A stretch of DNA of 64,000 bases from Escherichia phage ERS-1: sequence record PP337211; one strand, written 5' to 3'. The position numbers were made by a program, and so were the translations under genes. Positions 1 through 62,927 of this stretch are shown here, piece after piece; the first letter of the stretch is position 1; each line of letters starts with the position of its first letter. A model generated the notes under the pieces. That model did no database searches and was not told where the DNA came from. It was given only the letters and a program-made list of their open reading frames with translations.

Positions 1-1850
1 GGCACCGGGATGGCCCTTTGAGGGCGTCCCGGTTGGAGTACCCGGTGGTGATCTGGGTGATCACCGCCTTTGGCTTGTCTTTGCACCTCCGTCCGGTGGC
101 CGGTCGATGCGGTCGGCTTGCCGGCTCCTCCGCCGGGCGTCCGCTTCGGCTCGCCGCCGTCATCCTTCACCCGAGGATGCCCACCGCTTCCCGCCAGCGG
201 AAGGTCGTGCAGCCCTTCGCCCCGCCTTCCCGGCGCCGCTGTCTCGAAGTCCTCCCGCTGATGTCGGAGCGCCGCTCGCTCGCCGCGGAATCGACCCGCT
301 GGGCGGCGACGGTCGGGCGGCGACGTGTTCCTGGACGGTGACGCGGGAGCGCCTTGCCGCGGACCCGACGCGGTCCGCAGTCCTCCCTCCCCCGCGCCGC
401 GGGCCGCTGAACTCGATTGCGGTGCGGTCGAAGCTGTAGGCGAGTCGCTTCGGTCCCGGAGCTGACGTTGTCGGCCCAGGCTGACGGTCCCGGTCGGGGC
501 GATGGAAGTGAGGTGGGAGTTGCGGATGCCGTATTTGGCGATGGCGTCCTGCGTCCTCGCGGAGGGTCTTGATGAACTGGCCCTGAAGGTACTTGTCCTT
601 GTCGAACTTCGGGAAGGAGCCCTTGACCTTGGCGATGTGGGCGCTGGCCGTAGGGCTGCGCCTGCGTGTTGGTACCCTTGCCTCGAAGGCGAGGAAGGCG
701 GGCGAACCGTACGATGGCCTGGGCTTCGGCAGCGTTGGCCAGGCCGGTGATCCCGAGGCCCTTGCGGCGCTTGTCCTTGGCTTCCTGCTTCTGCGCGGCG
801 GTAGATCGCGCGATCGTACCGTTGTGCCATTGCGTGGACCTTCCTGCGGGATGTCCTCGCGGAACTGGTCCCGTCGAAGGCGTAGTGGCCCGCCCCGTCC
901 TCTAAGATGTACTTTACCTGTTGAAGGAGCCGGTGGTGCCGTAGGGCGGTAGGGTTGTCGTCCGTGGGGTTCGTGGCGGCGATGGTCTTGGGTTGGGCGT
1001 CGTTTGCGGTTGATCGCGTCGATGAACTTACGTCCCCGGCTCTGCCGGGTTGCCGGCTCGTGGCGATTGCGTCCTGGCGCCCGGGCGTCCGCTTCGCGGT
1101 AGGTCCGGCCCTCGAAGGTGAGGGGAACGGCTCGCCGGAGGCGACGCCGGCGCTGTCGGTGATGGCGACGGAGACGTTGAAGCCTGTTGCTTCTGGTCCG
1201 CTGAAGGGGATGATGGCCGCCGCTTCTCGGGGCTCCCTCCGGGAGTCGGTCCTCGAGGTCCGAGCGGCTGAACGTCCTTCCCGGGTCGCTTGGCGTGACG
1301 AACTCCTCGATGTCGGGATGGTCCGCGCATCACCCCCCCCGGGCTCCGCGGCGATGGCCGGCAGGAGGCGACGCACTGGGATCGCGTCGAAGATGTGCAT
1401 GAAGCTGATGGGGCCGGAGGAGTGGGACTGGAGCTTGCGGATCAGGTCGCCGCGAGGACGGAGGGTGCTGAAGTCAGGCCGATCCCGCCGCCCTTCCCGG
1501 TTGTGGCCTGCGGCTTCCGCGGCCCGGATTGACGGAGCCTTCGCCGTCCGCTTGAAGCTGTCGTTGATCGTCCCGGAGACGTAGCCTGTCCGTATGGCGT
1601 GACCTGGCGAGTGGAGCCCGTCGCGGACCGGATGCGGCCCGCCGGGAGGAAGTGGTACGCCTGCGAGGGCGTCCCGGAAGTCCGCGAAGTGCTGGTCATT
1701 GTCCTTCAGGGCCGCGGCGATCCGGTTCGTGGCCTCGCGGAAGGACTCGCCGCTGCCGCGGTACTTCTGGGCGTGTAGTTCTGTGAGTAGGGTACTTGAG
1801 GACCTGTCGGTGAGTCTCCTCGAAGGGTTGAGGGCTTTCTATCGTGTTGT
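1..1850 (-). CDS. Ribonucleotide reductase catalytic (alpha) subunit, copy 1; C-terminal end runs off the window start; frame broken by indels
   Basis: Reverse-complement translation gives RNR hallmarks spread over different frames: KYGIRNSHLTSIAPTGTV (~490-550), GFNVSVAITD (~1150-1180), HPDIEEFVHAK (~1300-1320), GKGGGIG and SSGPISFMHIFDAI (~1380-1500); GC3 is high in each motif frame. Confidence 0.8.
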
Positions 1851-1859
1851 TGCTCCTGT

Positions 1860-3026
1860 TCTTGGGCTAGGCGGTGAACGAGGTCGATGCGTTCCGCGGC
1901 CCGGGTAATGGCGGTGTACAACCCTTTCCTTCCGGCTCCTTCCCGTACCCCGTCCGGGGTGGCAGGACGTTGTTCCTTTGGGAGCCCTGCGACTTGTGGA
2001 CGGTGAGCGCACCTGCCCTGTCGAACTCCTCCGCGCCTTCCGCTCCCAGACTTCGGCTTGTTGCCGTGGAAGTAGTGGGGGTGGGCGCTGACTTCGACCT
2101 TCGCGCCGTCCTCGCCTTCGATGTCCTTGATGGAGTCGCTGTTGAAGATCGTGTCACGGCGGACCTTCCGGCTGGCCGTCGAGCAGGCCCGCCCTTCGTG
2201 GTCGTGAGGGGCCTTTGCCGTCGCCTTCCTGGGTGGGCGCGTCCGCCCGAGGAGTTCCCGGGACGTCGTCGCTCGTGATTCTCGTGGCGTTCCTGCCGGG
2301 TCAGGAGCTGGTCGGTGGACAGTACCATGTCCCGGAGTTCTTCGCGTGGTGGCGGCCATAGGAATCACGCGGCTGGCACCGTAGTCGCCGGGGGCGGAGC
2401 ACGCGGCCCTCGCGGACCTCCTTGGAGGTCCGGTCATCGGGTTGTCCTGGGCCTGGCGGTGAATCTCCGCGAGGACGTCGGGCTTGTCTTGAAGCAAGGG
2501 CGCTGCCGGGCGGGAGCTGTCCGGGATCGCCCGGGTGAGGACCGGTGCCGAAGTGAGGCCCTCCCCCCCGCCTGCCCGGACGGCGGAAGAATTCGCTTGC
2601 CGAGCGCGGCCCTCCAACCTGGGCGACTCCGCGTTGAGCTGGAAGGTCGGGCGGGCGAGGTTGATCTGCTCCGCCTTGATCGCCGGATCGACTTCTCCGG
2701 TCAGGGTTTCCGGGACGGGCTTGCGAGTGAGTAGCCGCGCCCGCTCCGCTTGGAGTTCCCTGGCGCTGCTGCGACTTGTCCTTGGGCGTGTAGATGAAGC
2801 TGCGAATGGTAATTCTCCGTTGGTCGCCCCGGACTTCGTGAGGACGTGAGCGGCCTTGCCGGTGTAGGCGGCGAAGGTGCCGGGACCTTTGACGGTCGCG
2901 GCGAGGTGTTTGGCCGGGTGGCCTGCCGGTTCCGGCGTACCCGGCGAGCTGGAAGGCAGGGCTTGTCCCGGGTCTTGACGTTGCCTGTCCTGGTTGGCGC
3001 GGTCTGCTGTTGGCGTACTCCGCGAT
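1860..3026 (-). CDS. RecD/Dda-like SF1B DNA helicase, copy 1; frame broken; start codon reads ATC where copy 2 has ATG
   Basis: Walker A AFQLAGYAGTG (~2930-2960), motif Ia FAAYTGKAAHVLTKSG, motif V TVHKSQGS (~1985-2010), motif VI LYTAITRAAERIDLV (~1885-1920), each in a different frame; RBS GGAGAA at 3032-3037 (rc). Confidence 0.8.
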
Positions 3027-3051
3027 GACCGTTCTCCGTTTCTGATAAGAA

Positions 3052-3072
3052 GGGGGGCCCTTGAAGGCCCCT
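3052..3072 (-). terminator. GC-rich hairpin between upstream gene and helicase RBS (terminator-like, no clear U-tract)
   Basis: Inverted repeat ggggggccc-ttgaa-ggcccc immediately upstream (on the minus strand) of the helicase RBS; conserved in copy 2. Confidence 0.35.
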
Positions 3073-3074
3073 GA

Positions 3075-3800
3075 AGGCACGCCGAGGGGGCGGGCCGTCC
3101 GGGCTGGTCCTCCCGGGTATCGGGTTGGCTGCCGCCGCCTGCGCCTGGGCTTCTCGTCGCGGCAGCCGGAGCTGGCGACGGGCGGCGCGGGCCTTGCCCT
3201 GCTGATCGTCGATTCGATGTCGGCGGACTGGAACAGCGGGTCATCGGGCAGGAGGCGAGCCGTGGGCGTTCTCTCGCCGTCGAAGGCGATGGTGTCCTGT
3301 TGAAGAAGGGCCCTTGTCGTCTGTCGGCTCGAGGCGGTAGCGGTGGGCGGCTGCGGAGCCGGGATGCGGCGACCGTCCCGGAATCCTGGATGGTCTTGGC
3401 CTTGTACCCTCTGCCCTTGTACTTCTTGATCTTCGTGGAGCCGAAGGCCCGACCGCTTCCCAGGCGTTGCCGCTGTTGCGCGTGCCGGCCCCGGTGGTGT
3501 AAGGTTCCGATTGGCTCGTTGCCGTCCGGGGGTGCTGCAGCTGCCGTGCTCGAGGACGCGGCCTTGGCGGTTCGCCGGGTCGCCGTCGACTCTGGGATGC
3601 CCGTTGCACCGCCGCCGCATCGCGGGGCTTCCACCACCGCACGTGCTGGGTGGTCGCCGGGACGAAGGCAATGCCCTTCTTGCCGTCCCAGACTTCGCCG
3701 GTCACCGGTGTTCGTGTACCCCGCCTGGCGGTGCTTGTCGTTCTCCTGGAGCTGCGGGCTGAGGGCCTGAAGAATCTGGAGGAACGGGATGCTGTAAGTT
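3075..3800 (-). CDS. Hypothetical protein upstream of helicase, copy 1; frame broken
   Basis: Protein-like peptides with high GC3 in rc frames: YSIPFLQILQALSPQLQENDKHRQAGYTNTGD, GEVWDGKKGIAFVPATTQHVRWWKPRD, STKIKKYKGRGYKAKTIQDSG, LLQQDTIAFDGE...DDPLFQSADIESTISRA. No family assigned. Confidence 0.35.
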
Positions 3801-4384
3801 GTCGCTGGTCCGGCTTCTCGAAACCCGCGCCCAGCCGTGCTGTGCCCTGGCCTCGCCGCGGCGGTGTTGTCTTTGTCGCCAGCGGTGGTCTTGCTATCGG
3901 TCTTGGCCCGGCGGCGCTGGCTCCTTCGGTTCGATGTGAGCGGGGCCGATTGGGCCCCCGGCTCGAATAGCCCTGCCGTCTGCCGGTGTACCCGCCATCG
4001 CCGCGGGGCGGTTGTAGGAAGGCCCGGGCCCGCCTCCTTCTGGGTCGTCACTTGGACGCTGACCACGGACCCCGAAAGGTTCTGGGACTTCCTGCCTTCG
4101 CTGTGGCCTCGCCGGCACGAAAGTGGTAGGGTTGAAGGATGGACGCTGGCGTTTGTCGTCGCCCGAACTCGTCCGCGAGACGCTGGCGGTTCGCTGCCTT
4201 CCCGCCTCGCCCTTGCCAAGGCGACTGGCGACCCGGCGCTCGATCAATCGCGGGCGTGGCCGTGCTCGCTCAGCTCAGGCGAAGGCGAGCGGGGCCTTGG
4301 CCTTCGGATGCTGGCGCCATCGTCTGCGGAATCCTTGATCTTCGGCTGGCGGTGGTCTTGGAGCTGCGGTATGCCGATCTGGTC

Positions 4385-4570
4385 CTCAAGTTTGGTACCC
4401 GGCGCTCCGCGATGTCGCGGAGTTCTTCGCGGGCCTTGTTGAGCTGGGCTTCGAGGCTGCGACCTTCGACGGGCGGCCTGTTGTTTGGCCCGCTGAGCCA
4501 GTTGGCGTGGCTTGACTCCGGCGGCTCGAGGTCTGTCTGGACGCGTTTTCCTTAGGCGTGGTTCTCCGTT
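4385..4570 (-). CDS. Small coiled-coil protein, copy 1 (start codon and stop both altered relative to copy 2)
   Basis: Homologous to 62703-62887; peptide ...KVADLEAQLDKAREELRDIAER; RBS GGAGAA present, but cacgcc replaces cacATGcc. Confidence 0.3.
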
Positions 4571-4596
4571 TCTTCGGCGAGGGTATTTGTATCGCT

Positions 4597-4630
4597 GAAG
4601 AAGTATAGCCGGTTGTTGCAAGAAGTAGAG
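4597..4630 (-). promoter_or_regulatory. Sigma70-like promoter, copy of the recurring family (-10 TATACT, -35 TCTACT, 16-bp spacer)
   Basis: rc sequence CTCTACTTCTTGCAACAACCGGCTATACTTCTTCAG; gene with RBS begins ~30 nt downstream. Confidence 0.45.
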
Positions 4631-6224
4631 GCCCAGGCGTTCACCGTGACCAGCGTTGGTCCTTGCCGCTCCGCTTGGAGGGATACGTCCCTTCGGTTGG
4701 TGTCCGCGGCGATGGCGACGGCGAACCCGATTGGGACTGGATCGCCCTTTGAAGGTGGTCCCCCGGCCCCGAAGCTTCGGCCGCTTCTCTTCGGTTTGGA
4801 ATGATTCGGCTCCGGCGGAAGGGGCCGCGGTCGGGCGGCGGGGCACCGGCCTTCCAACTCCTCCGCCGGCGAGGTTGAATTGGGCTCGAACCGCTGCTGT
4901 CGCGGTCCCTGCGGTGTTGGTCGGTGGCGGCTGACGGCTGGTAGTCTTGTGGTCCTGTCTTCCAGGCGGTCGCCGGTGATCTGGCTCGTCCCCGTTGAAT
5001 TTGTTCCTCAACGTTTTCCACCTTTCCTTCCCCTCGCAGTTCTCTGCCCTTGAGGTCGATGTACCCGCCGTTGTCGGTCTGTCCGATCCGGCGGGCGCGG
5101 CTCCTCCGACCAAGGCGGTCATTGAGCTTGAAGCTGTTGGAATAATAAATGACCGTCTTGGCCGCGGTCAAGGTGTCCGTGCCCGTCGCCCCCGCCGCGG
5201 GATCGCCCTGGCCGTCGCGGGCCCGCTCCTCCGGCGGACGGCCTCCGCCCGATCACCTGCCCGTTATGGTACAGGGGCGCTCGCCCTGGAACCTGGGCCT
5301 CGGCGTCCGCCCGCTCGTTGCGTTTCCCCTGCCGTTGGCCGGACCGCGCCGACGCCGCGCTCGCGGAGGGCGTCCGGATTGCGGCGATGCCGCTTTGCAA
5401 CTGGGCCCGGTCGATGCCCTTGCGCGGACTCCTCCATCAATTAGGTGCCGGGCGACGGTTCGGCCCCGCAATTCGGGTACCTTGGGTTCCGCTTCGTCGG
5501 TCGGGAGGTAGCTGTGATCTGCTGGAGGCGGAGGAGCCGGGTGATGGCGAGGGCGGCGATGACCGGGGCGGGGCCCTCCGCGCCCGTTGGGGGCGTCCCC
5601 GTCGGGTCGGTAGATGGAAGCGGTTGGGTTTGCCGCCGTTTGCCCGGCCCGTCGGTGCGTCTCGGCGACGGCTCGCGGCGACCGCTTCCGCGTCCCGGCT
5701 CACCCTGTTTCCCGCCCCTGTCATGTACTCGTCCGTGCTGGTGATATGCTTGCCCTGCTCCGGGGGTCCGTTTGGGAGAACTGCTCGCCGGTACTGTCGG
5801 CCGGGAGGTCTGGTGCGCCTCCCTTCGTGACCCGGGAGGAGACGGGCTGGAGTAGGGCGGTCGCGTGTCGGGCGGCGAGAGCCCTTCTGCCGTCCGTCTC
5901 CGCCTTCGTTCTTCTTGGTCTTTGGCTTGAAGGCGGTCGGGTCCTGCTCTTCCGGTCGTGAAGTGCTGTCTTGAACTCCGTGAAGGTGCCCTAGCGGTTG
6001 GGCTTCTGTAGTTGTTGTTTGTCCACCATCTCGGCTGTACAGGTGTTGAAGGGTCCCGGCTGTCGGAGTCCCGGCTGGGACCTGCCCTGAACGGCGCGTA
6101 CTTCGCGGAGCGGAGGATGGCAGCTGGTGCGCTCCGCGGTCGGGTCTTGATGCAGCGCGCCTTCCCTGACGTAATGTAGGCGGCGCTTGTCCAAGAAGTC
6201 GGTTGGCCCGCTTCCCGGAGGTGG

Positions 6225-6651
6225 TCAAGGCTTCAGGCGATGGCGGAGCCTGGTGAAGCCCTCGTGCTCGATGACGGCCTTGACCGCCTGCTCGTGCCCT
6301 TGGTGTCGGCCTTCGGGCTCTGGTAGTGGAAGGCCCGGACGTGCTTGATCGCGTTCGGGTACGTGGTCCGGAGATTCCCTCTCAACCCAGTTGCGGTGCA
6401 CGCTGTTCGGGCGACCACCTCGCTGTCGATGAGCCGCGGAGCCAGAGCCAGAGGCGGTGTCGATGGTCAGCTTGGACTTGCCGGCGCCCTGTTCCCGGAA
6501 GATCGCGCGGGCTTCTTCTTCGCGGGAGCGTGTCACTCCTCGCGCTGGCGGTTGAAGGGTTCGGCTTGAAGGGGTATTGGAGGGCGGCCTCATTTCTCGG
6601 CGATGCCCGGAAGATAGCCCAGCTGGGCGGCGAAGGCGAGCGGAGAATCAT
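6225..6651 (-). CDS. P-loop NTPase-like protein (first gene downstream of AT-rich island A); frame broken
   Basis: rc frames give EEEARAIFREQGAGKSKLTIDTASGSGS (Walker-A-like GAGKS), TTYPNAIKHVRAFHYQSPKADTKG, HEQAVKAVIEHEGFTRLRHRLKP then stop at 6225. Confidence 0.4.
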
Positions 6652-6739
6652 GTGCGCTTGGGAGGGGGGCCCAACGCTCGACTTCGTGTGCTGAAGAAGT
6701 ATGAAGTGGAGAGGCAGTGGAAGCCCTGTGGGGCTGGGG

Positions 6740-6910
6740 GTTTATATATTCTTCTTCTTCTTCTTTAACTCACTCAACTTACTTACCTTAACCCCCGCAC
6801 GGCCTCTTGGAACCTAGGCAACGGTCGCCGGTCGCCTCCCTGGGGGTCCCGGCGATTTATCGGGCGAAGTAGAACTGAACTGGAGAAGTGAAGTAACCTA
6901 AGCGAGGAGG
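6740..6910 (-). promoter_or_regulatory. AT-rich intergenic island A: TATATA box, (AAG)5 microsatellite, conserved 31-nt element, iteron-like GAGTTA repeats
   Basis: tttatata at 6741-6748; cttcttcttcttc at 6751-6763; ttaactcactcaacttacttaccttaaccccc at 6765-6796; homologous to 31420-31640. Confidence 0.5.
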
Positions 6911-6991
6911 GTCGGAGCTGTTACGGCGCTGGGCCTTCCATGGCGCTTGGGGCTCAGACCTTCGGGCGTGAAGGTAAGTATCCCAGCGTTC

Positions 6992-7342
6992 TCATTTGCG
7001 GAACCTCTCCTTGAGGCCCAGGAGGATCGGGGAGACCAGGCTGCAGAAGAAGATGCCCAGCAGTGGCACGGTTCCCCTTCCGCTCCTGTCCTCCCCGGAC
7101 TCGCGCCACTGGCGGAGGTGTTGGAAGTCCCTCTGGCGGCCAGCGGCTGCACGTGTTGGCCCGAGCTGGACTGTGTTTGCTTCACGGCTTCTGCCGCTTA
7201 CGCTGTTGGCTCCGCGCGGACGGCCCGGCTTCCGCGGCTCGCTTCGCCGCGTCCTCGCGGTAGCTTCGCCGCCCGGGTCTGTGGCCGGGCGGCGATGTCT
7301 TCGACTTGCTCCGGGCGGGGGTGTCGGTCCTGCGCGGGTCAC
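6992..7342 (-). CDS. Small membrane protein (C-terminal transmembrane helix); holin-like candidate; N-terminal extent uncertain
   Basis: rc frame ends ...GTVPLLGIFFCSLVSPILLGLKERFRK then stop at 6992 (hydrophobic helix followed by basic tail, high GC3); lies at the end of the structural block next to island A. Confidence 0.35.
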   Translation of the reverse strand: MTRAGPTPPPGASRRHRRPATDPGGEATARTRRSEPRKPGRPRGANSVSGRSREANTVQLGPTRAAAGRQRDFQHLRQWRESGEDRSGRGTVPLLGIFFCSLVSPILLGLKERFRK

Positions 7343-7949
7343 CTCGGCTGTACTCCACGGAGTCCGGGCCCCTGGGGGTTCAGATGGCCTGTCCTGTCCG
7401 CGTCCTTCCCCTGCGAGCCCGTGGACCGTGTCGGCTTGCCGGGTGGTGTCGAGTATCGGCCCCCGATCCGGAGGCGGCGCCGCCGCCGGCGGCTTCGCGG
7501 TCGTGCCGTAGCCGCGGAGGAACTTCCCGCGCCGCCGTGCCGGTAGGCGCTGTTGGCATCCTCCGGCGGAAATGGTCCTCCCCTTCTTCGGCGAAGACTT
7601 CTGCCGTCGCCGCGCTCGAATAGCGCGCGATCCGTTGGCCCGTACCCGGTTGTTCGTGCCGGTCGGGCTCGCCGGGCTAGGCCATGCTCCCCGTCCGCGG
7701 GCGAAGCCGGTTGGGCGGTCGTGGTCGCGGACTTCGCGTGGCCCTTAGAAGGCCGTCGGTCCTGGCGGAGGAAAGACTGAAATTGGTTGTAGGGCGCTGG
7801 TCCCCCAGCGCGCCGTTCCCTTGATGCCCGTTCGGGCCGTCACTGATAGCCGTTGGGACCTTCGGTACAGTTTGGGTATGTTCCCGAGTCGCTGTTCCCG
7901 GTGCGACGTGGGATCGGTAGCTGTCCTGGCCGTCGCGGACCGCCGTGAC

Positions 7950-8880
7950 CTCATCCGTTCCGGCCGCGGCGTTCTCCGTCGCCTCGTCGGTCGGTTTCTG
8001 CCGGCGCCGGTTGTGCCCGGCTCCGATTTTCGGGAGCGCGCCGCCGTTGGCCGCGTAGATGTCCGCGGTAGGTGTACCCGGCTCCGGCGATGTTCGCCGC
8101 GGAGTGGTCGATGACGGATGGATCCGCTGCGGTCCGGTCGCGGTGTGCCGGGTACAGGCTTGTCTCTCCGAGGATAGCCGAAGGATACTGGAGAACTGCT
8201 TTGCCGGAAGTTCCCGGGAGCGTAGGGGCGCGCGAAACGGCTACCAGCGCCTTCGAGTCCTCCGGCGGGCGGAGGTGTCCTACGCCACCCGGACTGGCCG
8301 GCCCTTCGCGGCGATGGTCTCGCCGCCTGTTATACGGAGCCGGTCGGCGCGCGGGCGTCCTCCGCGGAACGGAAACTGCGCCCCGGCTGCGCGTTCCGCG
8401 CAGACGAAGAATCGAAAGCAATCCCCACCCTGTCACTGACCCGTTCACCAGGTCGATAGCGTCCCTTGCCTGCGATTTCGTTGTCGGTTGCCGTCCACCG
8501 CTCCGTGGGGTTCGGTGCGGGAGGGCCTGGTTGGACCTGCTGGATGGAGGTCTGTATGGGCGTGATCGCGTTCGTCCTGGCCAGCGTGCGCCGCGGGGTC
8601 GCCGGTGGCCGCGTATGCGTAGGACCCGCCCGTGGCTTGTCCCTGGTCGGGGCTCTGGAGGTACTGGCGGGCTTGCCCTTTGCCGATCCAAGGCGGAGGC
8701 GTTGTCCAGCGCCTGGAGCTCGCCGAGGCTCGTTCGCCAAGTTGGAACAGTTCGCCTCCTCCGTAACGGCGGAGGGCGAACGGGTTGGGCGCTTGAACCG
8801 GGTCCTCTGCCGAGCCCTGGTTGCCCGTAGGTGGAGGACGGAAGGCCAAGGCTCGGTTGTGCTCCGCCGCATTCACCCGC
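7950..8880 (-). CDS. Hypothetical protein(s), structural-like; frame broken
   Basis: Protein-like rc peptides: AVLQYPSAILGETSLYPAHRDRTAADPSVIDHSAANIAGAGYTYRG, YLQSPDQGQATGGSYAYAATGDPAAHAGQDE. Confidence 0.25.
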
Positions 8881-31281: not shown

Positions 31282-31310
31282 AGTATAGCGTGAGCTTGGG
31301 CAATAGCCAA
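31282..31310 (-). promoter_or_regulatory. Sigma70-like promoter (-35 TTGGCT, 17-bp spacer, -10 TATACT)
   Basis: rc ccTTGGCTattgcccaagctcacgcTATACTcgcgg; sits ~100 bp downstream (minus sense) of AT-rich island B. Confidence 0.5.
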
Positions 31311-31419
31311 GGGCGGGTCGCGCCCGCCCGCGGGGAGAGGTCGAGGAGCGTGTGGGCGGATTGCCGGCAGGCGCGCAGCGTCCTCCGCTTAGGTTCGAGG
31401 GCTGCGTTCCACTTTCGTC

Positions 31420-31640
31420 CGAAAAAAAAAAAGTCAAGCGGTAAAGGTTAAAAACCTGCCCTTTATATACAGACAGACAGATAGATACTTAACTCACTAA
31501 CTCACTTACCTTAACCCCCTGACAGCCCTTCGGACAGCCGAAACCCTCAGTGGTGATTCTCTGGGCGGTCCGCCGGGTCGATTTGTCGGCAGAATTTATT
31601 TCAGGGTAAAGATCGAAGGTAACCTAGCTAAGGACGTGAA
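31420..31640 (-). promoter_or_regulatory. AT-rich intergenic island B, homologous to island A
   Basis: A11 run at 31422-31432; tttatata at 31463-31470; (CAGA)n and TAGATA repeats; ttaactcactaactcacttaccttaaccccc at 31489-31519; shared flank motifs GCTAGGTTAC and CGAYAAATCG. Confidence 0.5.
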
Positions 31641-32999
31641 CCCCAGACGGTTTGACCTCCCGCCTCGCCTCGCTTTCTCTTTTCGGAGCTGAACCCAGTG
31701 CATTTCGTAACCCGGGAGGTTCCCGGTCACGGAAGTGGAGAAGGAGGAGGGAGCCCCGCCGGTTTTCCGCTGGCCTTCGGCCTCCTGTAGCGAAGTCGGT
31801 CGATTGCCGCCCGGCGGGGCATTCAGGGGCGGGCTGCCCAGGTGTCGACCTGGATGGAAGGGGGTGAGGAGCCGCCCCGGCGGGCCTCCAGGTGGAGGGG
31901 AGGGGGTGGTTGTTGACGTAGGTGGAGCGGGGCGGTGGAATTGAGGGCGGCGTCCTCCGGGTCCCACGCCGCCCTCGACGGCCTGTCATCCCAGGTCGGT
32001 GCGATCGACCGGGAGACGCTGACGCGCTCCCAGCCCGCTCCGTCCGAGGCGATTGCGAAGCAGGGGCGCGGGCGTCCCGGGCGTTCAGCTTCAGCTCGAA
32101 GGCTCCGTTGTTCCCGAAGGATGGGTGGAGGCCAGACGGCCCGCGGTGACGCGGTACTGTTGGGGTGGAAGCCTTCAGTCACCTCCGTCTCGCGGGGCCG
32201 CGGCCCCTGGATTCCCCGATCAGCGCGACCGGACCGGCGGCGTTGAGCTGGGCGTTGAATTGCCGCTCCGTCTCCGCCTTGTTCTCCGGCTCATCGCCGA
32301 AGCAGACCCCGGCCCCGTCGGGCCGTAGGGGTGGGCTCCTCTGTCGTCGGGGTAAGTGGCATTTCGCGACGTCTCCCGGTTCGATCCGCAGGACCTTCCG
32401 CCGGCCGGCTAGCCGAACCGGGTCGTGTCCGCCCGGGAGCGGCTGAACTCGCTGTGGATGCGGTCGAAGTCGGACGGGTGGACGGGGCGGATCGGTAGAT
32501 TCATGAAGGGTCGCGGTCGCCGGTTGGGTTGCTCCAGGCATTCCCCGGCGTCGAAGTCGTGGACCTGTAATGGAGGATCTGGGGTCGCTGTCCGGTGATC
32601 GTCTCCCCATGCCCGGGCTTCGCCGGCGGTGTGCGGCGTACTGGCTTTATGGGGGTTAACGGAATTCGAACAGGGCCTGCGTCGGGTTGGCTTCGCCTCC
32701 GTGCCGGGTCCGAAGCCGCCGGACGGCCCGCTTCGCCTGGTCGATCGAGTTCGTCACTGTTCCGTGGTTCTCGGGTGTTGGAATAAGGTCGTTCTGGCGC
32801 TCCCGCTCCGCCTCCGTCTGTTGGTGCGGCCGGGCGCGGGGCGTCCGCGGCGGTCGCGGACCTCCCATTCACCGGCCGCCTTCCTCCGGGTAGCTGGAGC
32901 CGGCGGGCCGCTCGCCTTCGCGGGCGAGGGTTCCCGGTAGGTGACCTGATGAGGCAGGGGATGCCCGCCGCGGTCCTCGAACCTGGAGTGTCAGCCTCC

Positions 33000-33730
33000 C
33001 CCGGATCGCCGGAGCCGGTACCCGGTGACGGTTCGGCTCCGTCGTCGGCAGTCGTGGCGGTGATCCTTCGCCCGGCGGACCTGTAGCCGTCGCGGGTCGT
33101 GCCCGGAGGAGGTGGATGGCGCGGCGGTCGGCGGGGCGTTCGGCGTGTCGTTGCCTCGCCCTCCTTCGCCGGGGTTCGGGGCCGCGTGGCCTTCCCCCTC
33201 TGGGCGGCCTTCAGGGCCGCGCGGACTTCGCCCGGGACCTCGTCGAGCAGCTGGATCGCGTCGGCGTCCAGGGGCTCGCGCCCCGTTGAACTTCGGCAGG
33301 GCCTCCTCGAACCGCCAGCGGCCCGGGCGAGGGTCGCCTGAGCGTCGCCGGTCCGGGAACCTCCTGAAGTGACGGAAGATGTCCGCGGCGAGGCGGGCCG
33401 CTCCTTCCCTCACTTGGACAGGCCTTGGTCACCGTGATCTGGAGGGCAGCCCGGGCGTCTCCGCCGCAGAACCCGCTGGCTGGTAGCCTTCCCGGGGGCG
33501 GTTGATCGGTTTGGTGCCGCTTCTTTACCTCCCGGGGCGTTGCTGGGCTTCGTCCGCTCGCGGCGGTCGATGGTCTGCCCATCTCCTCCTGTTGTCCGCG
33601 GCGAGTTCGAGGAGGGACGCCCGGGCGCGGGCTTCCGATCCGCCCTGGGTCGTTCGCGTTCCGCGGTCGCGGAGGTCGTTGAGGGTGTTCTCCCGGGTTG
33701 GTAGTTGTTGGCCGGCGGTTGGGTTCTCCT
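33000..33730 (-). CDS. Hypothetical protein; frame broken
   Basis: rc peptides ENTLNDLRDRGT...EARARASLLELAADN, REGAARLAADIFRHFRRFPD, PLDADAIQLLDEVPGEVRAALKAAQRGKA. Confidence 0.25.
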
Positions 33731-34500: not shown

Positions 34501-34544
34501 TGTGAGTTCTCCAGTTCCGTTGTGGCCGGCACCGTCCCGACCTG

Positions 34545-34580
34545 AAAGAAGTATAGTGGGGGCCTCCGAAGAAGTAAAGC
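34545..34580 (-). promoter_or_regulatory. Sigma70-like promoter of the recurring family (-35 TTTACT 34573-34578, -10 TATACT 34550-34555, 17-bp spacer)
   Basis: rc GGGGCTTTACTTCTTCGGAGGCCCCCACTATACTTCTTTCAG; near-identical to the site at 36953-36990. Confidence 0.6.
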
Positions 34581-34908
34581 CCCGGAGGTCGATCGGTTGA
34601 CGGGCGGTAGGGGTCGGAGTCCTCGCGCGGCGAAGGCCGGACCGCTCCCGCCTCGCCTTGTCGTGGATTGTTCGCCGTCCGCCTCCGCCGTCGGTCCCGG
34701 TCCCGAAGCTGAAGCCCGGGATCGTCGCGCGGAGGACCGCGAGCCGTTGGGCGAGACGTTCGGGCGATCCCCGTTGCGAACTCATCGCCCGGCGGAGTTC
34801 CCCGGCTGGCCTGAAGGATTGGCGAGGGCGTCCGCGGGACCTGGAGGGCTTGATCGCCGGCGCGGTGGCCCTGTTGTCGTTGATTCGTTTCCTGCGAGTC
34901 GGGACGGG

Positions 34909-36915: not shown

Positions 36916-36952
36916 TTCTCCCGTTTCTGTGGTTGCCGTTCTCGTTGAACGT

Positions 36953-36990
36953 GAAGAAAGTATAGTGGGGGCCTCCGAAGAAGTAAAGCC
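36953..36990 (-). promoter_or_regulatory. Sigma70-like promoter of the recurring family (-35 TTTACT 36982-36987, -10 TATACT 36959-36964, 17-bp spacer)
   Basis: rc GGGGGGGCTTTACTTCTTCGGAGGCCCCCACTATACTTTCTTCACG. Confidence 0.6.
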
Positions 36991-39900
36991 CCCCCCGCGC
37001 GGTTCTTTTGATTCGGTGGGCCCGTGGTGGTCCCGAGCTGGCCGGCCCCCTCCCTCCGCTCCTCCGCTCCTTTCGCCCTGTTGGCCCCCGGCTCCCCGGC
37101 GGCATCTTCGCCGCGGCCTCCGCCATCCGGGCGCCTCGCGGTCCGTGTCGTGGAGGATGCGGCCAGTTGCCGAGTCGATTTGCTGCGGGTCCCTTGGGTT
37201 CTCCTTCTGGGTCGCCCCGGAGGACGTTGGGTGCTCGGAGGAGGGATCTGGCGGGGTGGTCTTTCCTGGCCGGCGTGGACGGCTTGCGCGCCTTCCGGCT
37301 TCGACCTGCCCCGCTCCTTCGCCCGTGCGCGGTGCGGGTGTCCCGCGGCGGAGATCCCCGGGATCGGCACGCCCGCCCGGCGATAGTAACCTCGGCAACG
37401 GCGATGTTGGGCTACGGCCCCTGGCCGGGTCGCTTCGCGTCGGGTACCGCCCAACCCTGCGGGCCAGGTCGGTCTGCGCGGAGCGCATTGCCTTCGGCGG
37501 GCGCTTGGGCTGGAGCCGCCCTGGTCCCGCCCGGCAACTGGACCGTGGAGGGTTCCACCCCGCCGCCGGGTAGGCGCCTGGAGGTTGCGTCGCCCTCGAG
37601 GTGTCTGGCTTCGCCGGATCCGGTTCGGCCGTCGAACGGGATCGCCCCGACCTGAATGACCCCGGCGTCGGCCGGTCGCCGCTTCGTTTTCCTGCCGATC
37701 GGCGCTGCCGGTTCGCGTTGTCGTCGTGATCACCTTCCTCCTCTTTGTTTGATCTCGCTTTGAAATCCCGGGGCCTTTGTTGCGGCATCCCGGACCACTC
37801 GCCGCCCTCCGCCTTTTTAGGGGCGGGCCTCCGTCCGGTTGAAGGGGTGAGCGGCGGTGGTCCGCTGGTCCCGGTGTGCGACTCCCAGTCGCGGGAACCG
37901 ATAGGCCCCCGGCGGGGGTTGATGAAGTAGCGTGGGGCGACCGCCTCCGAAGCGGTGCGGAACCGATAGGCCCCTGTGCCCTGCCACTCCCCGCGGCGGG
38001 GTTTCCTCCGGCTCGTCCGCCTCCCGGCGGCGGGCGCTTCGCCTTCCCCTTCTTGACCTTGCGGACGCGGGCCTTGCCGACCGGGCTGTTCGAGAAGGCG
38101 AGGTGGAGGGCGTAGCGCGGTGACCGTCCGCTGGCCGTCGATTGGCTGAGTTCTCCGGCTTTGGGTTCGGAAGAAGTCCGGCTCCTTTGGCTCGCCCGGG
38201 GGGCGGTCGCGTCCGCTCCGGCAACCTGACCATCCTGCAGGGCTGACGCGGCGGCGGGTGAACCTGTGAGCCCAGGGGGGTGAATCTGGATCTTGTGCCC
38301 TGCTGCGCTGGGATCCCTGTGACGTTCTGGAAGGACTGGGCCGTGGTCTGGAAGGACCTTCACCCCCGGGCCGTCTGCCCGTGGAAGGGTGTAGGCCCGG
38401 TGGGCGACTCCGGCCCCAGGTGGTCGCCCGGGAGGTCCGGATGAAGTCCTTTGCCCCGCTTCCCCGTCGTTTGTGGCGGGTTCGGTGGTTTCTCCGGTAG
38501 GGGTTGTTGGTCGAAGCCCGGGGCGGTCCTGTCCCGGGCCCGTGATCGGTCCCGACTCCGGCGGCGGGGCGGCGGGCGTCCGCCTGAACCTGCTCCGCCT
38601 GCCGGCCGCCGCGAACCGGGTTGCCCTTTGGCCTGGCGGGTTGAAACGGAGGTCTTGGCCTCCTGGCGTGGGCGTAGCCGTTCCCTTCTTGGTTTGAAGG
38701 GAACCTCCCGGGATGTACCCGGCCCTCGGTCCCGGTTCTCCTTCAGTTCTGGCCCTCCTCTCGTCGTCCGTTCCTTGCCCGTGCCGCTCCGCTCCTCCCT
38801 GAGGTCGCCGCGAGCCGTCGCCGGTCGGACGCCCGGGCCTTCTGCGCTGTTCCTCACAGCCTCCACCTGCCGACGGAAGGGCGAAGGCGAGAAGGCGGAG
38901 GCCCCCGTGGATCGCCGCGTCGGAAGGTTTGCCGGCGGCCGCTCCGCCTTGGGCTTGTACGTCCCGTGGGGCGCTTGTTCGGGGTCTTGGTTTGGTGCTG
39001 GCCCTCCTTCGGGTGCCGATGAATCTGGTGCCAAGCGGTCCGGGTCGCGCTCCTCGCGGATCGCCTCCCGGTGCCCGCCCTCGATCCGTGCTCCCGTGCC
39101 AAGCCCCTGGCTCGCCCTGGAAGGCGAGCTGGTGCGCTTCCCCGGTCGGCGCCCGCTCCGGGTAGGTGAGCTGGGCGGCAGTCCTTGCCACGTTCTTCCT
39201 GCCCGTGCCCGTCCGTGGAGTTCGCTGAAGTCGCCCGAGGCTTCGACTTGGCAACGGTACGCGGCCCGTCCTCGAAGGCCCCGCGGGCGGTTTGGCGTTG
39301 AATCTCCGCGAAGTGGCGACGGAAGCGGGCCGCGCGGAACTGGAGTTGGTGGGCGACGGACGGGCCGCCGAGGACCTCGTCCGCGGTGTGATGCCCTGCC
39401 CGCTGTCCGTAGTCGCGGACCTCCTCCGGCTTCGCGGAGGGTACGGCGGCGGCGATTGCCTCGAAGGCGACGGCCGGGTAGCCTTGCGCGCTGCCTCCTC
39501 GCCCTTCTTCGGGCGTAGGTTCCGAAGAAGCGATGGCCGGGTTGTTCGTCTTGATCCGTGTTCGTCTCCGTGTCGATCCGGGGTTTGTCGTCGTCCGGCT
39601 TCGGGAGGAGGGCGATGGCGCCCGCTTCGCGGAGTTCCTTCGGTGGAGCGGTCGCGGTCCCGGGATCGCCAGGCCGGTGAGCCAACCGATGAGCCGGCGT
39701 GTCGGTGGCGGCGGGTCGGCTTCCCTGGAGTCTTGGGCAAACACTCCCGGCGCTGGACCCGGTGCACCTGCTCCGAGGCGAGGACGCCCCGGGCGATGAC
39801 CTGAACCCTCCCGTCCGTGAGGGAGGCGTTGCCGGCACTCCTCGGCTGGGTACGGCCGGGCTGCTTCGTCCGTTCGTCCCTGCCGGCCCTCCGTGGAGTT

Positions 39901-57049: not shown

Positions 57050-57690
57050 GACCTCACGTGGAACCGCTTGTGCCGTCCGCGGCGAAGGCGGAGCGGCACC
57101 CGCAGCCCTTCCGCTTCATGTCCTGCTGAAGCCGGAGGGCGTGGCTCGGTCCGGGCTTGTTGCTGCCCGGGCTTCGACCTGTTCCTGCCTTGGTCGTCCG
57201 TTTCGGGGCGGGATCCTGTATGTCGGGAGACGCCCGCTCCAGCCCTCGCGGCGGGGATCGGGGCGTGGCCCGGGCGGCCGTGTCGGCGCCGCGCGGGGCG
57301 CGGGCCTTCTTCTCCTCCGCGGACTTCGGAGCCTTCTGGGCCTTCGGAGGCGACGGGGCGGGGGTTGCGGTTTGTTTGCGGTTTCGACCTTCTGGGTTCG
57401 GCCTGCTCTGCCGCTCAAACTTCCGGGTGCGCTTCGGCATAACGCGCCAGGCATCTTCTGGTGTGGGGCAATGGCGGTGGTCTTGTTGGCGAAGCGGCGC
57501 ACGTTCGGACGGACTTGCCGTTGCGGAAGGTGCCGATGACTTCGTCGGACCTGCTCGACCAGGGCTGGGCCGGAGGGCTCGCTGGGAGGCTTCGGTGTAG
57601 GCGACGTTGTCGAAGTTGATGGTGTTGGCGGTAGGCTCCTTTTCTGGGGTTGAGGTGCGATCTTGTTCGACCGTGAGAGAATCTTAACCC
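57050..57690 (-). CDS. Hypothetical small protein(s) downstream of RNR copy 2; frame broken
   Basis: rc peptides [69 protein letters not shown]...EEKKARAP. Confidence 0.25.
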
Positions 57691-57712
57691 TGGCCCCCGA
57701 AGAAGTAAAGTG
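57678..57712 (-). promoter_or_regulatory. Sigma70-like promoter of the recurring family (-35 TTTACT 57704-57709, 17-bp spacer, -10 TAAGAT 57681-57686)
   Basis: rc CACTTTACTTCTTCGGGGGCCAGGGTTAAGATTCTC. Confidence 0.45.
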
Positions 57713-58201
57713 GTTTGACTAACTTTTTCAGGTTCTCGGTCCGAAGGCCGGGTGCCCGTTGGACGGCGGAGGGCGAACCGTTGAGGCCTTCTTCCCTGAA
57801 GGCCCGGGCGGCGTCCCTCGTGCCCTGGTTCTCCTGTACCGGCTGGTTGCGCCCCGAGGTGTGCGGTACCCTGGCGACCTCGAAGCCCTGCGACGTCCTG
57901 GCAAACCCTTGCCGGTGGAAGTCCTGGCGCTGGGCCGGATAGCCGAAAGCCTCTGCGACGTCTCCGCCGGGTCAGGAGGATGACGTGCCGACCGCCGGTG
58001 GTGGGCCTCCACCGCGGCCGCGGGCACCCCGCGTCCCGGGCGGGCCGCTTGTCGTCCCGCTTCCGGCGCCCCGGGAAGGTGTGGAGGGTGTCGGCGCGGT
58101 CGAAGGTCTTGAGGTAGTCCTTGGCGATAGGCCCGCCTGCTTCGCCCTACGCCCTCCCGCGGAGGACCGCGGAGGGGAGCCAGGGGCCGGTCGGGTCCGT
58201 G

Positions 58202-60130
58202 TTAGGTCCGGCGCTGGCCGATGAGTAGGGGCTTGTTCGGTTCTTCGGGCTCCTCGCTTTCTTCTGGTGACGTTTGGTTTGAGGGCTCGCTCTGTACCGG
58301 GATGGCCCTTTGGGGTGTCCTGGTTGCGCGAAGGAGGAACCCGGCCGGTGAATCTGGGTACCGCCTTCTGTCTGTCCTTTGCACCCTCTCCGTCCGGTGG
58401 CCGGGTCGACGCGGTCCGGCTCGCCGGCTCCTCCGCCGGGGCGTCCGCTTCGGGCTCGCCGCCGTCTCTTCCTTTGCCAGGATGCCCACCGCTTCCCGCC
58501 GGGCGGAAGGTCGTGTGCCCTTCGCCCCGCCTTCCCTGGTGCTGGCTGTGTCCCAGTCTTCCCGCTGATGTCGGAGCTGCCGCCGCTCCGCTCGCCGCGG
58601 AACGACCCGCTGGGCGGCGACGGGCGGGGCGGCGACGTGTTCCTGGACGGTGACGCGGGAGGGGCCTTGCCGCGGACCCGAACGCGGTCCGTAGTCCCCC
58701 GCCTTCGCCTCGCGGGCCGCCTGAACTCGACGGCGGTGCGGTCGAAGCTGTAGGCGAGTTCGGCCGGACCGGAGCTGACGTTGTCGGGCGTGCCGACGGT
58801 CCCGGTCGGGGCGATGGAAGTGAGGTGGGAGTTGCGGATGCCGTATTTGGCGATGGCGTCCTGCGTCCTCGCGGAGGGTCTTGATGAACTGGCCCTGAAG
58901 GTACTTGTCCTTGTCGAACTTCGGGAAGGAGCCCTTGACCTTGGCGATGTGGGCGCTGCCTGGTAGGCTGCGCGTGCGCGTGTCGGTACCCTGCCTCGAA
59001 GGCGAGGAAGGCGGGCGAACCGTACGCGGCCTGGCTTCGCGCGTTGCCCTGCCGGCGATCCCGAGGCCCTTGCGGCGCTTGTCCTTGGCTTCCTGCTTCT
59101 GCTGCGGCGGGTACATCGCGCCATCAACCCGTTGCCATCGCGCGGACCACCTGCGGATGTCCTCGCGGACTGGTCCCGTCGAAGGCGTAGCGGCCCGCCC
59201 CGTCCTCTAAGATGTACTTGACCTGTTGAAGGAGCCCAGGAGGCAGGCACCGTAGGGCGGCAGGGGTTGCTCGCCGGTGGGGTTCGTGGCGGCGATGGTC
59301 TGGCGTCCTGGCGCTCGTTTGCGGTTGATCGCGTCGATTAATGGCGTACCCGGCTCCGCCTGTCCCGTTCGTGCGATCGCGTCCTGGCGCCTGGGCGTCG
59401 CTTCGCGGGCAGGTCTGGCCCTCGAAGGTGAGGGGAACGGCTCGCCGGAGGCGATGCGGCGCTGCCTTGTCGGTGATGGCGACGGAGACGTTGAAGCTGG
59501 TTGCTTTGGGTCTGCCGAAGGAGACGGGCCGCCGCTTCTGGGCTCCCTCCGGGAGTTGGTCCAGGTCCGGCGGCTGAACGTCCTTCCCGGGTTGCTTGGC
59601 GTGAATGAACTCCTCGATGTCGGGATGGTCCGCGGATCGTTGTCCGGGCTCCGCGGCGATGGCCGGCAGGAGGCGACGGCTGGCAATCGCGTCGAAGATG
59701 TGGGTGAAGCTGATGGGGCCGGAGGAGTGGGACTGGAGCTTGCGGATCGGTCGCCGCGAGGACGGAGGGTGCTGAAGTCAGGCCGATCCCCGCCGCCCTT
59801 CCCCGGTATCGCGTGGCCGCGGCTTCCGCGGCCCGGATCGCTTGACGGAGCCTTCGCCGTCCCAAGCTGTCGTTGATCGTCCCGGAGACGTAGGTTGTAT
59901 GGCGTGACCTGGCGAGTGGAGCCCGTTTGCGGACTGGATGCGGCCCGCCGGGAGGAAGCTGCGCCTGGAGGGCGTCCCGGAAGTCCGCGAAGTGCTGGTC
60001 ATTGTTCCTTCAGGGCCGCGGCGATCCGGTTCGATGGCCTCGCGGAAGGACTCGCCGCTGCCGCGGTACTTCTGGGCGTGTAGTTCTTGTGAGTAGGGTA
60101 CTTGAGGACCTGTTGTGAGTCTCCTGAAGG
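58202..60130 (-). CDS. Ribonucleotide reductase catalytic (alpha) subunit, copy 2 (3' end present); frame broken
   Basis: Same motifs as copy 1 plus RQTIAATNPTGEQPLPPYGACLLGSFN (NPCGE-type active-site region); C-terminal ...EESEEPEEPNKPLLIGQRRT then stop at 58202. Confidence 0.8.
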
Positions 60131-60139
60131 GTTGAGGGC

Positions 60140-61306: not shown

Positions 61307-61334
61307 TGACCGTTCTCCGTTTCTGATGAAAAGA

Positions 61335-61355
61335 AGGGGGGCCCTTGAAGGCCCC
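61335..61355 (-). terminator. GC-rich hairpin upstream of helicase RBS (copy of 3052-3072)
   Basis: ggggggccc-ttgaa-ggccccc inverted repeat. Confidence 0.35.
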
Positions 61356-61364
61356 CTGAAGGTA

Positions 61365-62702: not shown

Positions 62703-62887
62703 TTAGTTTGTACCCTGGCGCTCCGCGATGTCGCGGAGTTCTTCGCGGGCCTTGTCGAGTTGGGCTTCGAGGTCTGCGACCTTCGACTGGGCGCCTGTTG
62801 TTCGGCCTGCTGAGCGAGTTGGTCCTGGCTTGTCGCCGGCGGTCTGAGGTTGGACATAGTCCAGGTATGCGTTTTCACTTGAGGCAT
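62703..62887 (-). CDS. Small coiled-coil protein, copy 2 (ATG and stop present, one internal frameshift)
   Basis: rc GGAGAACCAC-ATG (ATG is complement of 62885-62887); C-terminal frame ...SKVADLEAQLDKAREELRDIAERQGTN then stop at 62703; length is not a multiple of 3. Confidence 0.35.
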
Positions 62888-62927
62888 GTGGTTCTCCGTT
62901 TCTTCGGTAGAGGGGTATCCCAATTGC

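Follow-up and report, generated by a model that had tools for sequence, protein, structure and literature searches.

Two AT-rich islands in the 64 kb of Escherichia phage ERS-1 analysed here (record PP337211; the whole stretch is called the window below), island A at 6.74–6.91 kb and island B at 31.42–31.64 kb, share a series of motifs that includes a 31-nt element, and our comparisons show that they are paralogous, non-coding and conserved at the same two places in the genomes of Yuavirus-type siphophages. In the interpretation that we favour, which we regard as about an even call, the islands are transcription-control cassettes made of convergent promoters and terminators, and they would serve two genome junctions, one leading from the tail genes and gp01 to the helicase gene gp02 and the other from the early genes to terS.

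An earlier note, made from the letters of the window, had described both islands, and we find them where it had put them, with all of the motifs that it listed in the same order and orientation in A and B. MAFFT alignment of the two islands with their equivalents in phages PaTs-2 and LKO4 recovers the shared blocks, and the islands are indeed AT-rich, being the two lowest-GC 60-bp segments (33% and 35% GC, vs 68% for the window); their counterparts in phage YuA are likewise the lowest-GC 60-bp segments of that genome (25% and 32% vs 64%). The 16-nt tail of the element, ACTTACCTTAACCCCC, has exactly two sites in the window, one in each island, where 100 shuffles give an expectation of 0. Two details needed amending. 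The motifs are real, but the strands had been mixed, as the genes, GCTTAGGTTAC and the CGAYAAATCG box are read from the minus strand and the 31-nt element had been quoted from the plus strand. The element does contain an internal repeat, but its unit is not GAGTTA: in real phages the repeat has a 9-bp period and consists of 2.6 copies of TAAGTTAAG. The uncorrupted element of these phages reads CTTAACTTACTTAACTTACTTACCTTAA(A)CCCCC, and the window copy is slightly corrupted.

The window represents a Yuavirus genome in degraded form. By blastn it matches the genus Yuavirus (Mesyanzhinovviridae, Rabinowitzvirinae; the Pseudomonas siphophages YuA, M6, LKO4, PaTs-2 and others) at 80–82% identity across entire queries of 3.5–8 kb, with the genes on the minus strand, and positions 1–8000 differ from PaTs-2 by 1234 substitutions, ∼200 deletion events and ∼50 insertion events, or roughly one indel per 30 bp. 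Since fine details of the window copies are unreliable for this reason, we used curated reference phages for the islands. In YuA, island A corresponds to the intergenic region between gp01 and the helicase gene gp02 (413–839) and island B to the region upstream of terS (32840–33498), and the cassette spans that we compared with the window islands are YuA 489–700 and 33014–33230, respectively. The orthology holds in that the flanks align by blastn at 80–82% identity, the cassettes align blockwise, and the intergenic positions are the same in PaTs-2, LKO4, YuA and the Bordetella phage MW2. The placement of the islands at module boundaries is borne out, island A lying between tail or structural genes (gp76, gp77 and gp01) and the helicase/replication block and island B between early ‘host-interaction’ genes and terS, ∼250 nt upstream (in gene direction) of a sigma70 promoter, TTGGCT-N17-TATACT, which is P014 of YuA. 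The adjacent ‘P-loop protein’ at 6225–6651, which had been proposed as a possible binding partner, turns out to be the frameshift-broken N-terminus of the helicase gp02 homologue.

The islands are non-coding, and their conservation is at the nucleotide level. In the curated records of YuA, LKO4 and M6 both stretches are free of annotated genes. Some automatic records (PAC6 and similar) carry a 72-aa open reading frame (ORF) from the gp01 stop to a stop codon just before the core of the element, and an ORF of this type is open in both YuA and MW2; in YuA the conserved blocks fall in frame 0, apart from one that falls in frame 1, whereas MW2 has all of them in frame 2, so that the island A ORF is very likely spurious and the possibility, raised in the earlier note, that the element is part of a coding sequence falls away. 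Automatic annotation elsewhere places short ‘hypothetical proteins’ on these regions, one over A and three over B (L096 567–785, PP408253.1; L097 335–925; and similar).

The same two cassettes, upstream of helicase gp02 and upstream of terS, are present in >50 GenBank Yuavirus genomes, with identities among the Yuavirus records listed of 96–100% for island A and 91–100% for island B, and each island query also matches 9 Bordetella Vojvodinavirus records at 70–78% in the same two positions. Nearly all of the records listed hold two places, and YuA has exactly two copies of the core; the element thus recurs twice per genome at syntenic sites and is not a repeat scattered among related genomes. 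The 24-nt core, GGTAAGTAAGTTAAGTAAGTTAAG, reads the same in both islands throughout the Yuavirus and Vojvodinavirus reference genomes examined, although their flanks differ by ∼30%. An exact-match search of IMG/VR with this core gave 32 loci, among which identity follows from the type of query. The microsatellite beside the core varies in its unit, which is (AAG)6, (TATC)6 or (TAA)5–6, keeps a length of ∼17–24 nt, and is always followed by TATA(T)AAA. The conservation reaches further to a low-GC relative (IMGVR_UViG_3300043400_000014, 53 kb) with three cassettes that have the exact 24-nt core and are near-identical over the ∼300 bp compared; the hairpins on either side of each cassette share one 14-bp stem, CGTCTTAACTTAGC. 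One of its cassettes stands upstream of a P22-gp3-type terS and another upstream of an SNF2 helicase gene, which is followed by a Pam3_Gp34-like protein and a Dda-like helicase, so two of the three copies share their synteny with the Yuavirus islands. Bacterial genomes contain the 22-mer mostly inside longer (TAAGTAAGT)n-type tandem or low-complexity repeats of AT-rich metagenome-assembled genomes (MAGs), or in contigs of phages that had been binned into MAGs. The core is, in essence, a short tandem repeat of 9-bp period, and these matches therefore do not represent a host-encoded counterpart. A 16-mer search of IMG/VR returned mostly chance matches in AT-rich phages, together with variant lineages (L066/L068/L073/L077/L091 and L075).

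Published data on YuA place a promoter on each strand of this sequence. The only two sigma70 promoters recorded from a YuA promoter trap are those of islands A and B, on fragments 489–568 and 33014–33160, respectively, with ‘medium activity (1000 MU)’ and ‘clear -35/-10’ (NC_010116). Their -35 hexamer TTAGGT lies within GCTTAGGTTAC / CTTAGGTTAC on the gene-sense strand, and the YuA promoters read TTAGGT-N17-TTCAAT (A) and TTAGGT-N17-TGAAAT (B), which is below the 9/12 threshold of our sigma70 consensus scan and hence goes unreported there; in the window the spacers are 16 nt (A) and 18 nt (B) instead of the 17 nt of real phages. Reportedly, these promoter-trap promoters go back to Ceyssens et al. 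2008. The CGAYAAATCG box comes after the -10 hexamer and would fall in the initially transcribed region. During YuA infection ONT-cappable-seq called no sense transcription start site (TSS) at either trap promoter (bioRxiv 10.1101/2023.10.13.562163), an absence that could also reflect the detection thresholds of that study. Both trap fragments end before the core, and the activity of fragments that lack it fits a sense promoter that works when freed of the core.

On the strand opposite to the genes, YuA has a mapped start, P002, with its TSS at 612(-) (Tables S3 and S5 of bioRxiv 10.1101/2023.10.13.562163, published as PMC10914365). The 50-nt upstream region listed for P002, TTCTTCTTCTTCTTAACTTACTTAACTTACTTACCTTAAACTCCCGGACG, is composed of the microsatellite and the 31-nt element (Table S3 of the same study, PMC10914365), and the element as it had been quoted, on the plus strand of the window, therefore lies directly upstream of a mapped antisense start, which is ∼15 nt beyond it. 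Two antisense transcription units (TUs) arise from P002, one of 201 nt (612→411) that stops at a bidirectional terminator and one of 552 nt (612→60) (PMC10914365). The hairpin GCGCTTGGG...CCCAAGCGC between gp01 and island A is identified as this bidirectional terminator because mapped termination sites on both strands, T002 (395+), T004 (471+) and T003 (411-), flank it at 415–463 (bioRxiv 10.1101/2023.10.13.562163), and one arm of the corresponding window hairpin carries ACTTACCTTCAC, an inverted copy of the element tail with 2 mismatches. Among the functions that had been proposed from the letters, a regulatory site thus gains direct support from the promoter-trap -35 box and the adjoining antisense TSS, whereas no positive evidence emerged for a replication origin or a packaging site.

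If the islands are indeed convergent-promoter cassettes, each would run, in gene direction, from a terminator hairpin through the sigma70 promoter with its -35 box CTTAGGTTACTT, the CGAYAAATCG box and a GC-rich spacer of fixed length to the AT block, that is, the 9-bp-period repeat, the 3–4-nt microsatellite and TATA(T)AAA, and then to a hairpin and the proximal promoter serving the next gene. Read from the other strand, the AT block, including the 31-nt element, would be the upstream region of a promoter firing toward the sigma70 promoter. In YuA the predicted sense start (-10 at 532–537) and the mapped antisense start (612) would face each other at a distance of ∼67 bp. Antisense transcription from the element would oppose sense transcription by collision or occlusion of RNA polymerase, the antisense RNA would cover the sense promoter region and gp01, and the cassette would insulate the early and late arms of a genome whose genes all point one way. 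By extension, antisense transcription would also start at island B and in the other phages, and interference would be the purpose of the arrangement. Coliphage 186 has face-to-face promoters, pR and pL, with starts 62 bp apart and transcriptional interference between them. The islands resemble it in that two promoters face each other with starts ∼67 bp apart (the sense one predicted) in a cassette at a gene-block boundary; they differ in that this phage is virulent and has no lysis/lysogeny decision, and in that their two arms form an inverted repeat, an arrangement not known from 186.

The core unit has the reverse complement CTTAACTTACTT, which the -35 box CTTAGGTTACTT approximates as an imperfect inverted repeat. 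The distance of the box from the core is 119–121 nt in every Pseudomonas-phage cassette, 110–111 nt in Bordetella island A and 89–90 nt in the L066 lineage. By comparison, the GC-rich spacer that separates the core from the CGAYAAATCG box is largely unrelated in sequence among A, B and a third type (L008, L026, L032). The arms also co-vary: L008 has CTTAACTTACTT against the canonical core, the -35 box TTACTTACCTTACTT (CTTACCTTACTT) of L066, L077 and L091 matches their variant core AAGTAAGGTAAGTAA at 15/15 positions, and that of L075 matches its own variant core at 18/18. Fixed spacing with a free spacer sequence and co-varying arms, together with the lack of a selected RNA structure in the spacer (see below), argue for a constraint at the DNA level. 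Suppression of the sense promoter by the AT arm in the native setting would fit three observations, namely the fixed spacing with co-varying arms, the activity of trap fragments without the core, and the lack of a called sense TSS in infection. The same observations could be read as a bipartite control site, in which a lineage-specific phage factor would recognise the co-varying inverted repeats, bridge or melt the AT block and switch both junctions between early transcription on the one hand and replication initiation or late transcription on the other. We consider this doubtful; if it were true, the two copies would be master switches, and possibly origins, of Yuavirus-type phages with hypermodified thymidine.

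Several observations weigh against convergent promoters as the whole explanation. The antisense TSS is documented in one phage (YuA) and at island A only, and none was called at island B, where it would be expected at ∼33150(-). The -10-like TAAACT is found in YuA alone, being replaced by TAAACC or TTAACC in most relatives, and none of the three occurs in the Bordetella phages, with the core identical throughout, so promoter function alone may not explain the conservation of the core. Our sigma70 consensus scan reports nothing at the P002 region, and a position weight matrix built from six canonical ‘phage-type’ promoters of YuA gives the region -52 in register and -11.5 at best, where the canonical sites score 34–50 and the 99.9th percentile of the YuA genome is -3.2. 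A loose resemblance, TTAACT-N18-TAAACT, remains, and the window copy has TAACCC where the -10 hexamer is expected; judged by its sequence, P002 appears to carry the label ‘phage promoter’ loosely. Finally, the low-GC relative keeps the synteny and has the core on the other strand with respect to the genes, as would suit an independent transcription unit and, no less well, a DNA site that acts in either orientation.

The ‘phage-type’ promoters of YuA follow the consensus CTTTACTTCTTCGG-N8-CACTATACTTCTT, i.e. TTTACT-N17-TATACT; they are annotated in YuA as ‘putative sigma70 promoter requiring phage-encoded cofactor’, at six sites with mapped TSSs. Their repeats are found in the window at 34540–34583, 36949–36992, 57671–57714 and 62924–62967 in minus-strand sense, which appears as ...GAAGAAGTATAG...GAAGAAGTAAAG when viewed on the plus strand.

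The objections to convergent promoters leave room for an orientation-independent protein-binding or unwinding site, replication origins included, and the least improbable alternative, though still unlikely, is that the cassettes are transcription-activated origins in which a host promoter would transcribe into the easily melted AT block, the purine-rich transcript would form an R-loop or a primer for the phage's family-A DNA polymerase, and the 9-bp repeats would be recognised by the phage primase or helicase. The cassettes are the two least stable (lowest-GC) 60-bp segments of the genome, island A lies directly upstream of the helicase gene in a phage that encodes its own Pol A, primase and helicases, and the order of promoter, GC-rich stretch and 45–65 bp AT block is conserved. 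In the (AAG)n variants the gene-sense strand of the AT block is free of C and rich in purines, and the distant relative keeps the synteny of the core and not its orientation, as expected for a DNA site. The primary origin of T7 has promoters followed by a 61-bp AT-rich region, and oriF/ori34 of T4 combine a promoter with a downstream unwinding element. The islands share this geometry, as a resemblance only, in that a sense promoter is followed ∼90 bp on by the most AT-rich 45–65 bp of the genome beside replication genes, but they are present in two or three copies, which would be unusual for a primary origin, and their AT block includes a sequence kept across genera that unwinding alone would not require. 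Purine-richness does not extend to the (TATC)6 variant, which dominates in island B and among the Bordetella phages, and the absence of a sense TSS at the trap promoters also speaks against transcriptional activation. GC skew, which had been suggested as a check, is small and noisy in the window and in YuA and therefore uninformative; neither it nor AT skew changes polarity at either island. The islands contain no exact match to the DnaA box or to the consensus of integration host factor (IHF), boxA or sigma54. As in iteron origins, short direct repeats lie beside AT-rich DNA, but the 9-bp unit has 2.6 contiguous, unspaced copies, no array of at least three spaced iterons was found in either island of YuA or the window, and no Rep-like gene is annotated nearby.

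If the cassettes instead act as RNA, they would be small-RNA genes or leaders of the nut/put or lambda PR'-6S-tR' type, in which a sigma70 transcript of 150–170 nt, ending at the hairpin past the AT block, would carry the single-stranded AU-rich core and either act in trans or modify RNA polymerase for read-through; we hold this to be rather improbable. The promoter-trap promoters are real, the AT block of island B is followed by a good hairpin and a U-run (a 10-bp stem plus UUUUU by RNAfold in YuA, LKO4 and L007, with two terminators annotated there in the LKO4 record), and in relatives hairpins stand at either end of the cassettes, as in independent transcription units. Three non-coding RNA candidates in 5′ untranslated regions are reported for YuA, one of them named in the main text (Putzeys et al., PMC10914365). 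The island B hairpin was, however, missed by a strict terminator scan, the hairpin that follows the AT block in island A has no real U-run, its U-tract being weak, and in YuA neither a sense TSS nor a termination site is called within the islands. For 14 B-type leaders RNAalifold gave -7.1 kcal/mol with a covariation term of -0.05 and thus no conserved structure, and among eight spacers folded against dinucleotide shuffles the canonical ones fold no better than the shuffles (z from -1.05 to +0.92); only in the short-spacer lineages, where the spacer is one hairpin with a conserved CCCAGNRGAA loop, does z fall to ∼-2.4. Searches of the YuA and MW2 islands against Rfam at E ≤ 1 gave 0 matches, as did Rfam 15 at gathering thresholds in the window, where a tRNA/tmRNA search found none either. 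An ‘AAnAAnAA’ (Hfq/Crc) reading of the microsatellite was rejected, since the dominant (TATC)6 variant does not fit it. Lambda has terminated leader modules of this kind, PR'-6S RNA-tR' and nutL/nutR. The islands are like them in that homologous elements lie downstream of both known host-dependent promoters and in that island B pairs a constitutive promoter with a nearby terminator ahead of late genes, and unlike them in having no boxA/boxB, conserved RNA structure, known Q- or N-like factor or detected sense transcript.

The position of island B, ∼330 bp upstream of terS in Yuavirus and ∼200 bp upstream of the P22-gp3-type terS in the low-GC relative, would suit a pac site or a binding array of the terminase small subunit, as the genomes are reported to be circularly permuted with headful packaging. 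An identical copy nevertheless lies 25–33 kb away upstream of the helicase gene and one relative has a third; published comparative work reports no defined genome start site, and nothing ties the element to DNA ends, which makes a role in packaging very unlikely. We see equally little prospect for a mobile or recombining element of the miniature inverted-repeat transposable element or inverton type that has spread to two or three sites, with its regulatory content incidental. Co-varying inverted repeats of 12–18 bp do bound a segment of 90–180 bp, the three copies of the low-GC relative are near-identical, A/B chimeras exist (e.g. L042) and point to recombination between the paralogues, and the Bordetella A and B cassettes have a common AT block and downstream flank, indicating concerted evolution. 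The sites are, however, syntenic across genera and in the low-GC relative, so that the copies are ancient and fixed and not recently mobile, annotated recombinase or transposase genes are lacking around the islands, and no opposite orientations were seen among close relatives. Ranked by support, convergent-promoter cassettes come first and the transcription-activated origin second, followed at lower rank by the small RNA or leader, the pac site and the mobile element.

The regulatory elements of YuA, i.e. the promoter-trap promoters and P002 (Putzeys et al. 2024, Table S3), are the same sequences in the same genomic positions as the window islands. The YuA literature differs from our description in that P002 is only a ‘phage promoter’ in a supplementary table and island B has no mapped antisense TSS. 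The sense promoters (2008), the antisense start (2024, supplementary table) and the sequences themselves, in >50 public genomes, are thus already known; in the literature covered, which does not extend to the 2008 YuA paper itself, we found no description of the two islands as one paralogous cassette, of a 24-mer unchanged across two genera, of its inverted-repeat relation to the -35 box and co-variation with it, or of the fixed spacing. What the comparison adds is that the host-dependent promoters of 2008 and the antisense start of 2024 are joined into one duplicated, deeply conserved cassette, a small and concrete target for mutagenesis, reporter assays and protein pull-downs in phages that are common therapeutic candidates against Pseudomonas aeruginosa. 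It also warns annotators that the short ORFs called across the islands are probably spurious. The gain is incremental: a known genus receives a more detailed regulatory map, and no new class of system is introduced. The coordinates of the individual features are collected in Table 1.

Table 1. Features of islands A and B in the window, and core sites of the low-GC relative
Feature	Position	Strand	Remarks
Island A
Bidirectional-terminator hairpin GCGCTTGGGG...TCCCAGCG	6943..6988	both	long, imperfect, just past the gp01 homologue; equivalent to YuA 415–463
Gene-sense sigma70 promoter (predicted)	6874..6903	-	-35 TTAGGT 6896–6901 inside GCTTAGGTTAC; -10 TTCAGT 6874–6879; homologous to YuA 509–537
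GTAACCTAAGC	6893–6903		island A motif found in the window
CGATAAATCG box (seen as CGATTTATCG)	6853..6862	-	predicted initially transcribed region of the sense promoter
GC-rich spacer	6797..6852		sequence variable, length fixed; putative P002-equivalent TSS ∼6802 (+), transferred by alignment from YuA 612(-)
31/32-nt element (window copy 32 nt)	6765..6796	+	9-bp-period repeat; putative antisense-promoter upstream region; inverted-repeat partner of the -35 box
TTTATATA (6741–6748) and (TTC)5 microsatellite (6749–6763)	6741..6764		AT-rich block upstream of the putative antisense promoter; (TTC)5.7 by TRF
Small GC hairpin AGCCCcacaGGGCT	6722..6735	-	after the AT block in gene direction; equivalent to the YuA/PaTs-2 hairpin AGCCCCGCTGGGCT
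Helicase proximal promoter region (putative)	6605..6711	-	TACTTCTTC-type and GGGCTAT(A)CTT -10 motifs; window copy degraded
Island B
Gene-sense sigma70 promoter (predicted)	31598..31628	-	-35 CTAGGT 31622–31627; -10 TGAAAT 31598–31603; homologous to YuA 33048–33076
GTAACCTAGC	31619–31628		island B motif found in the window
CGACAAATCG box (seen as CGATTTGTCG)	31579..31588	-	island B counterpart of the CGAYAAATCG box
Second copy of the 31-nt element	31489..31519	+	found in the window sequence and in the island alignment
TTTATATA (31462–31469) and (CAGA)3(TAGA)2 (31470–31487)	31462..31487		corrupted form of the (TAGA)6 of real phages
Intrinsic-terminator-like hairpin	31420..31469	-	TATAAAGGGC...GCCTTTTT in real phages, then T-run
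terS-driving sigma70 promoter TTGGCT-N17-TATACT	31282..31310	-	equivalent to YuA P014, TSS 33417(+); found in YuA by the consensus scan
Low-GC relative
Core site	L010 5846–5869
Core site	L014 100–123
Core site	L035 10080–10103

Of the motifs around the promoters, TTC(G/T)CCCGAYAAATCG is kept in the A and B cassettes of both Pseudomonas and Bordetella phages. Downstream of island A, YuA has a start, P003, at 814(+), 26 nt ahead of gp02, with the upstream sequence ...GCTGGGCTATACTTCCGGGCA (bioRxiv 10.1101/2023.10.13.562163). Around island B, over YuA 32200–33400 (window ∼31300–32500), the published TU table has no sense transcript that spans from P013 (farthest 3′ end 32161) to P014 (33417), and island B appears to be transcriptionally silent in the sense direction during infection despite its promoter-trap-positive fragment.

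Further properties of the window concern its quality. On the plus strand its composition is skewed (A 10.4%, T 21.2%), and in the comparison with PaTs-2 it is A that is preferentially lost from this strand (A>G 242 times, A deleted 143 times, all changes to A together 64). The first 5.7 kb recurs at 58.3–64 kb, giving a unit length of ∼58.3 kb, and the overlapping copies (300–5650 and 58610–64000) are only 81% identical to each other. The long ORFs of the window give low-complexity translations without Pfam matches and codon-phase GC periodicity was not found; on these grounds, and as no ORF is intact, we rejected the window as intact coding DNA. In M6-like phages T is replaced by 5-NedU (PMC5889632). 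A single long and noisy read of the gene-sense strand, in which modified T caused errors, would fit the error pattern, and so would a synthetic or generated sequence. Archaeal or eukaryotic readings of TTTATATA as a TATA box and of GGTAAGT as a splice site were dropped once blastn had put the window in Yuavirus.

A few observations concern the cassettes of relatives. In the Yuavirus-like lineage of L066, L068, L073, L077 and L091 (IMG/VR contigs of 33.8 and 60.9 kb, GC ∼0.6) the variant core is GGTAAGTAAGGTAAGTAAGTTAAG with a (TAA)n microsatellite, the spacer is much shorter and forms one hairpin, CCGGAGG-CCCAGCAGAAGT-CCTCCGG, and the -35 box TTACTTACCTTACTT is complementary to the variant core without a mismatch; the flanking hairpin stems are GCGCTTACC/GGTAAGCGC, the equivalent of GCGCTTGGG/CCCAAGCGC in Yuavirus. 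In the Bordetella phage MW2 (L005 470–500 and L006 790–820) A and B have the same AT block, with (TATC)6 TATAAATATAGGATTTA, and the same downstream ACTTCTTC, and they are more alike than either is to its Pseudomonas orthologue, which points to concerted evolution by gene conversion. Contigs of Yuavirus- or Vojvodinavirus-like phages have been binned into unrelated MAGs (L042, L048, L056 and L060, DYKZ01000001/2, ‘Anaerolinea thermophila’; L061 and L062, Microbacteriaceae), and those of 112 and 81 kb hold one A-type and one B-type cassette each, the A-type copy of L042/L060 being a chimera with an A-type first half and a B-type second half.

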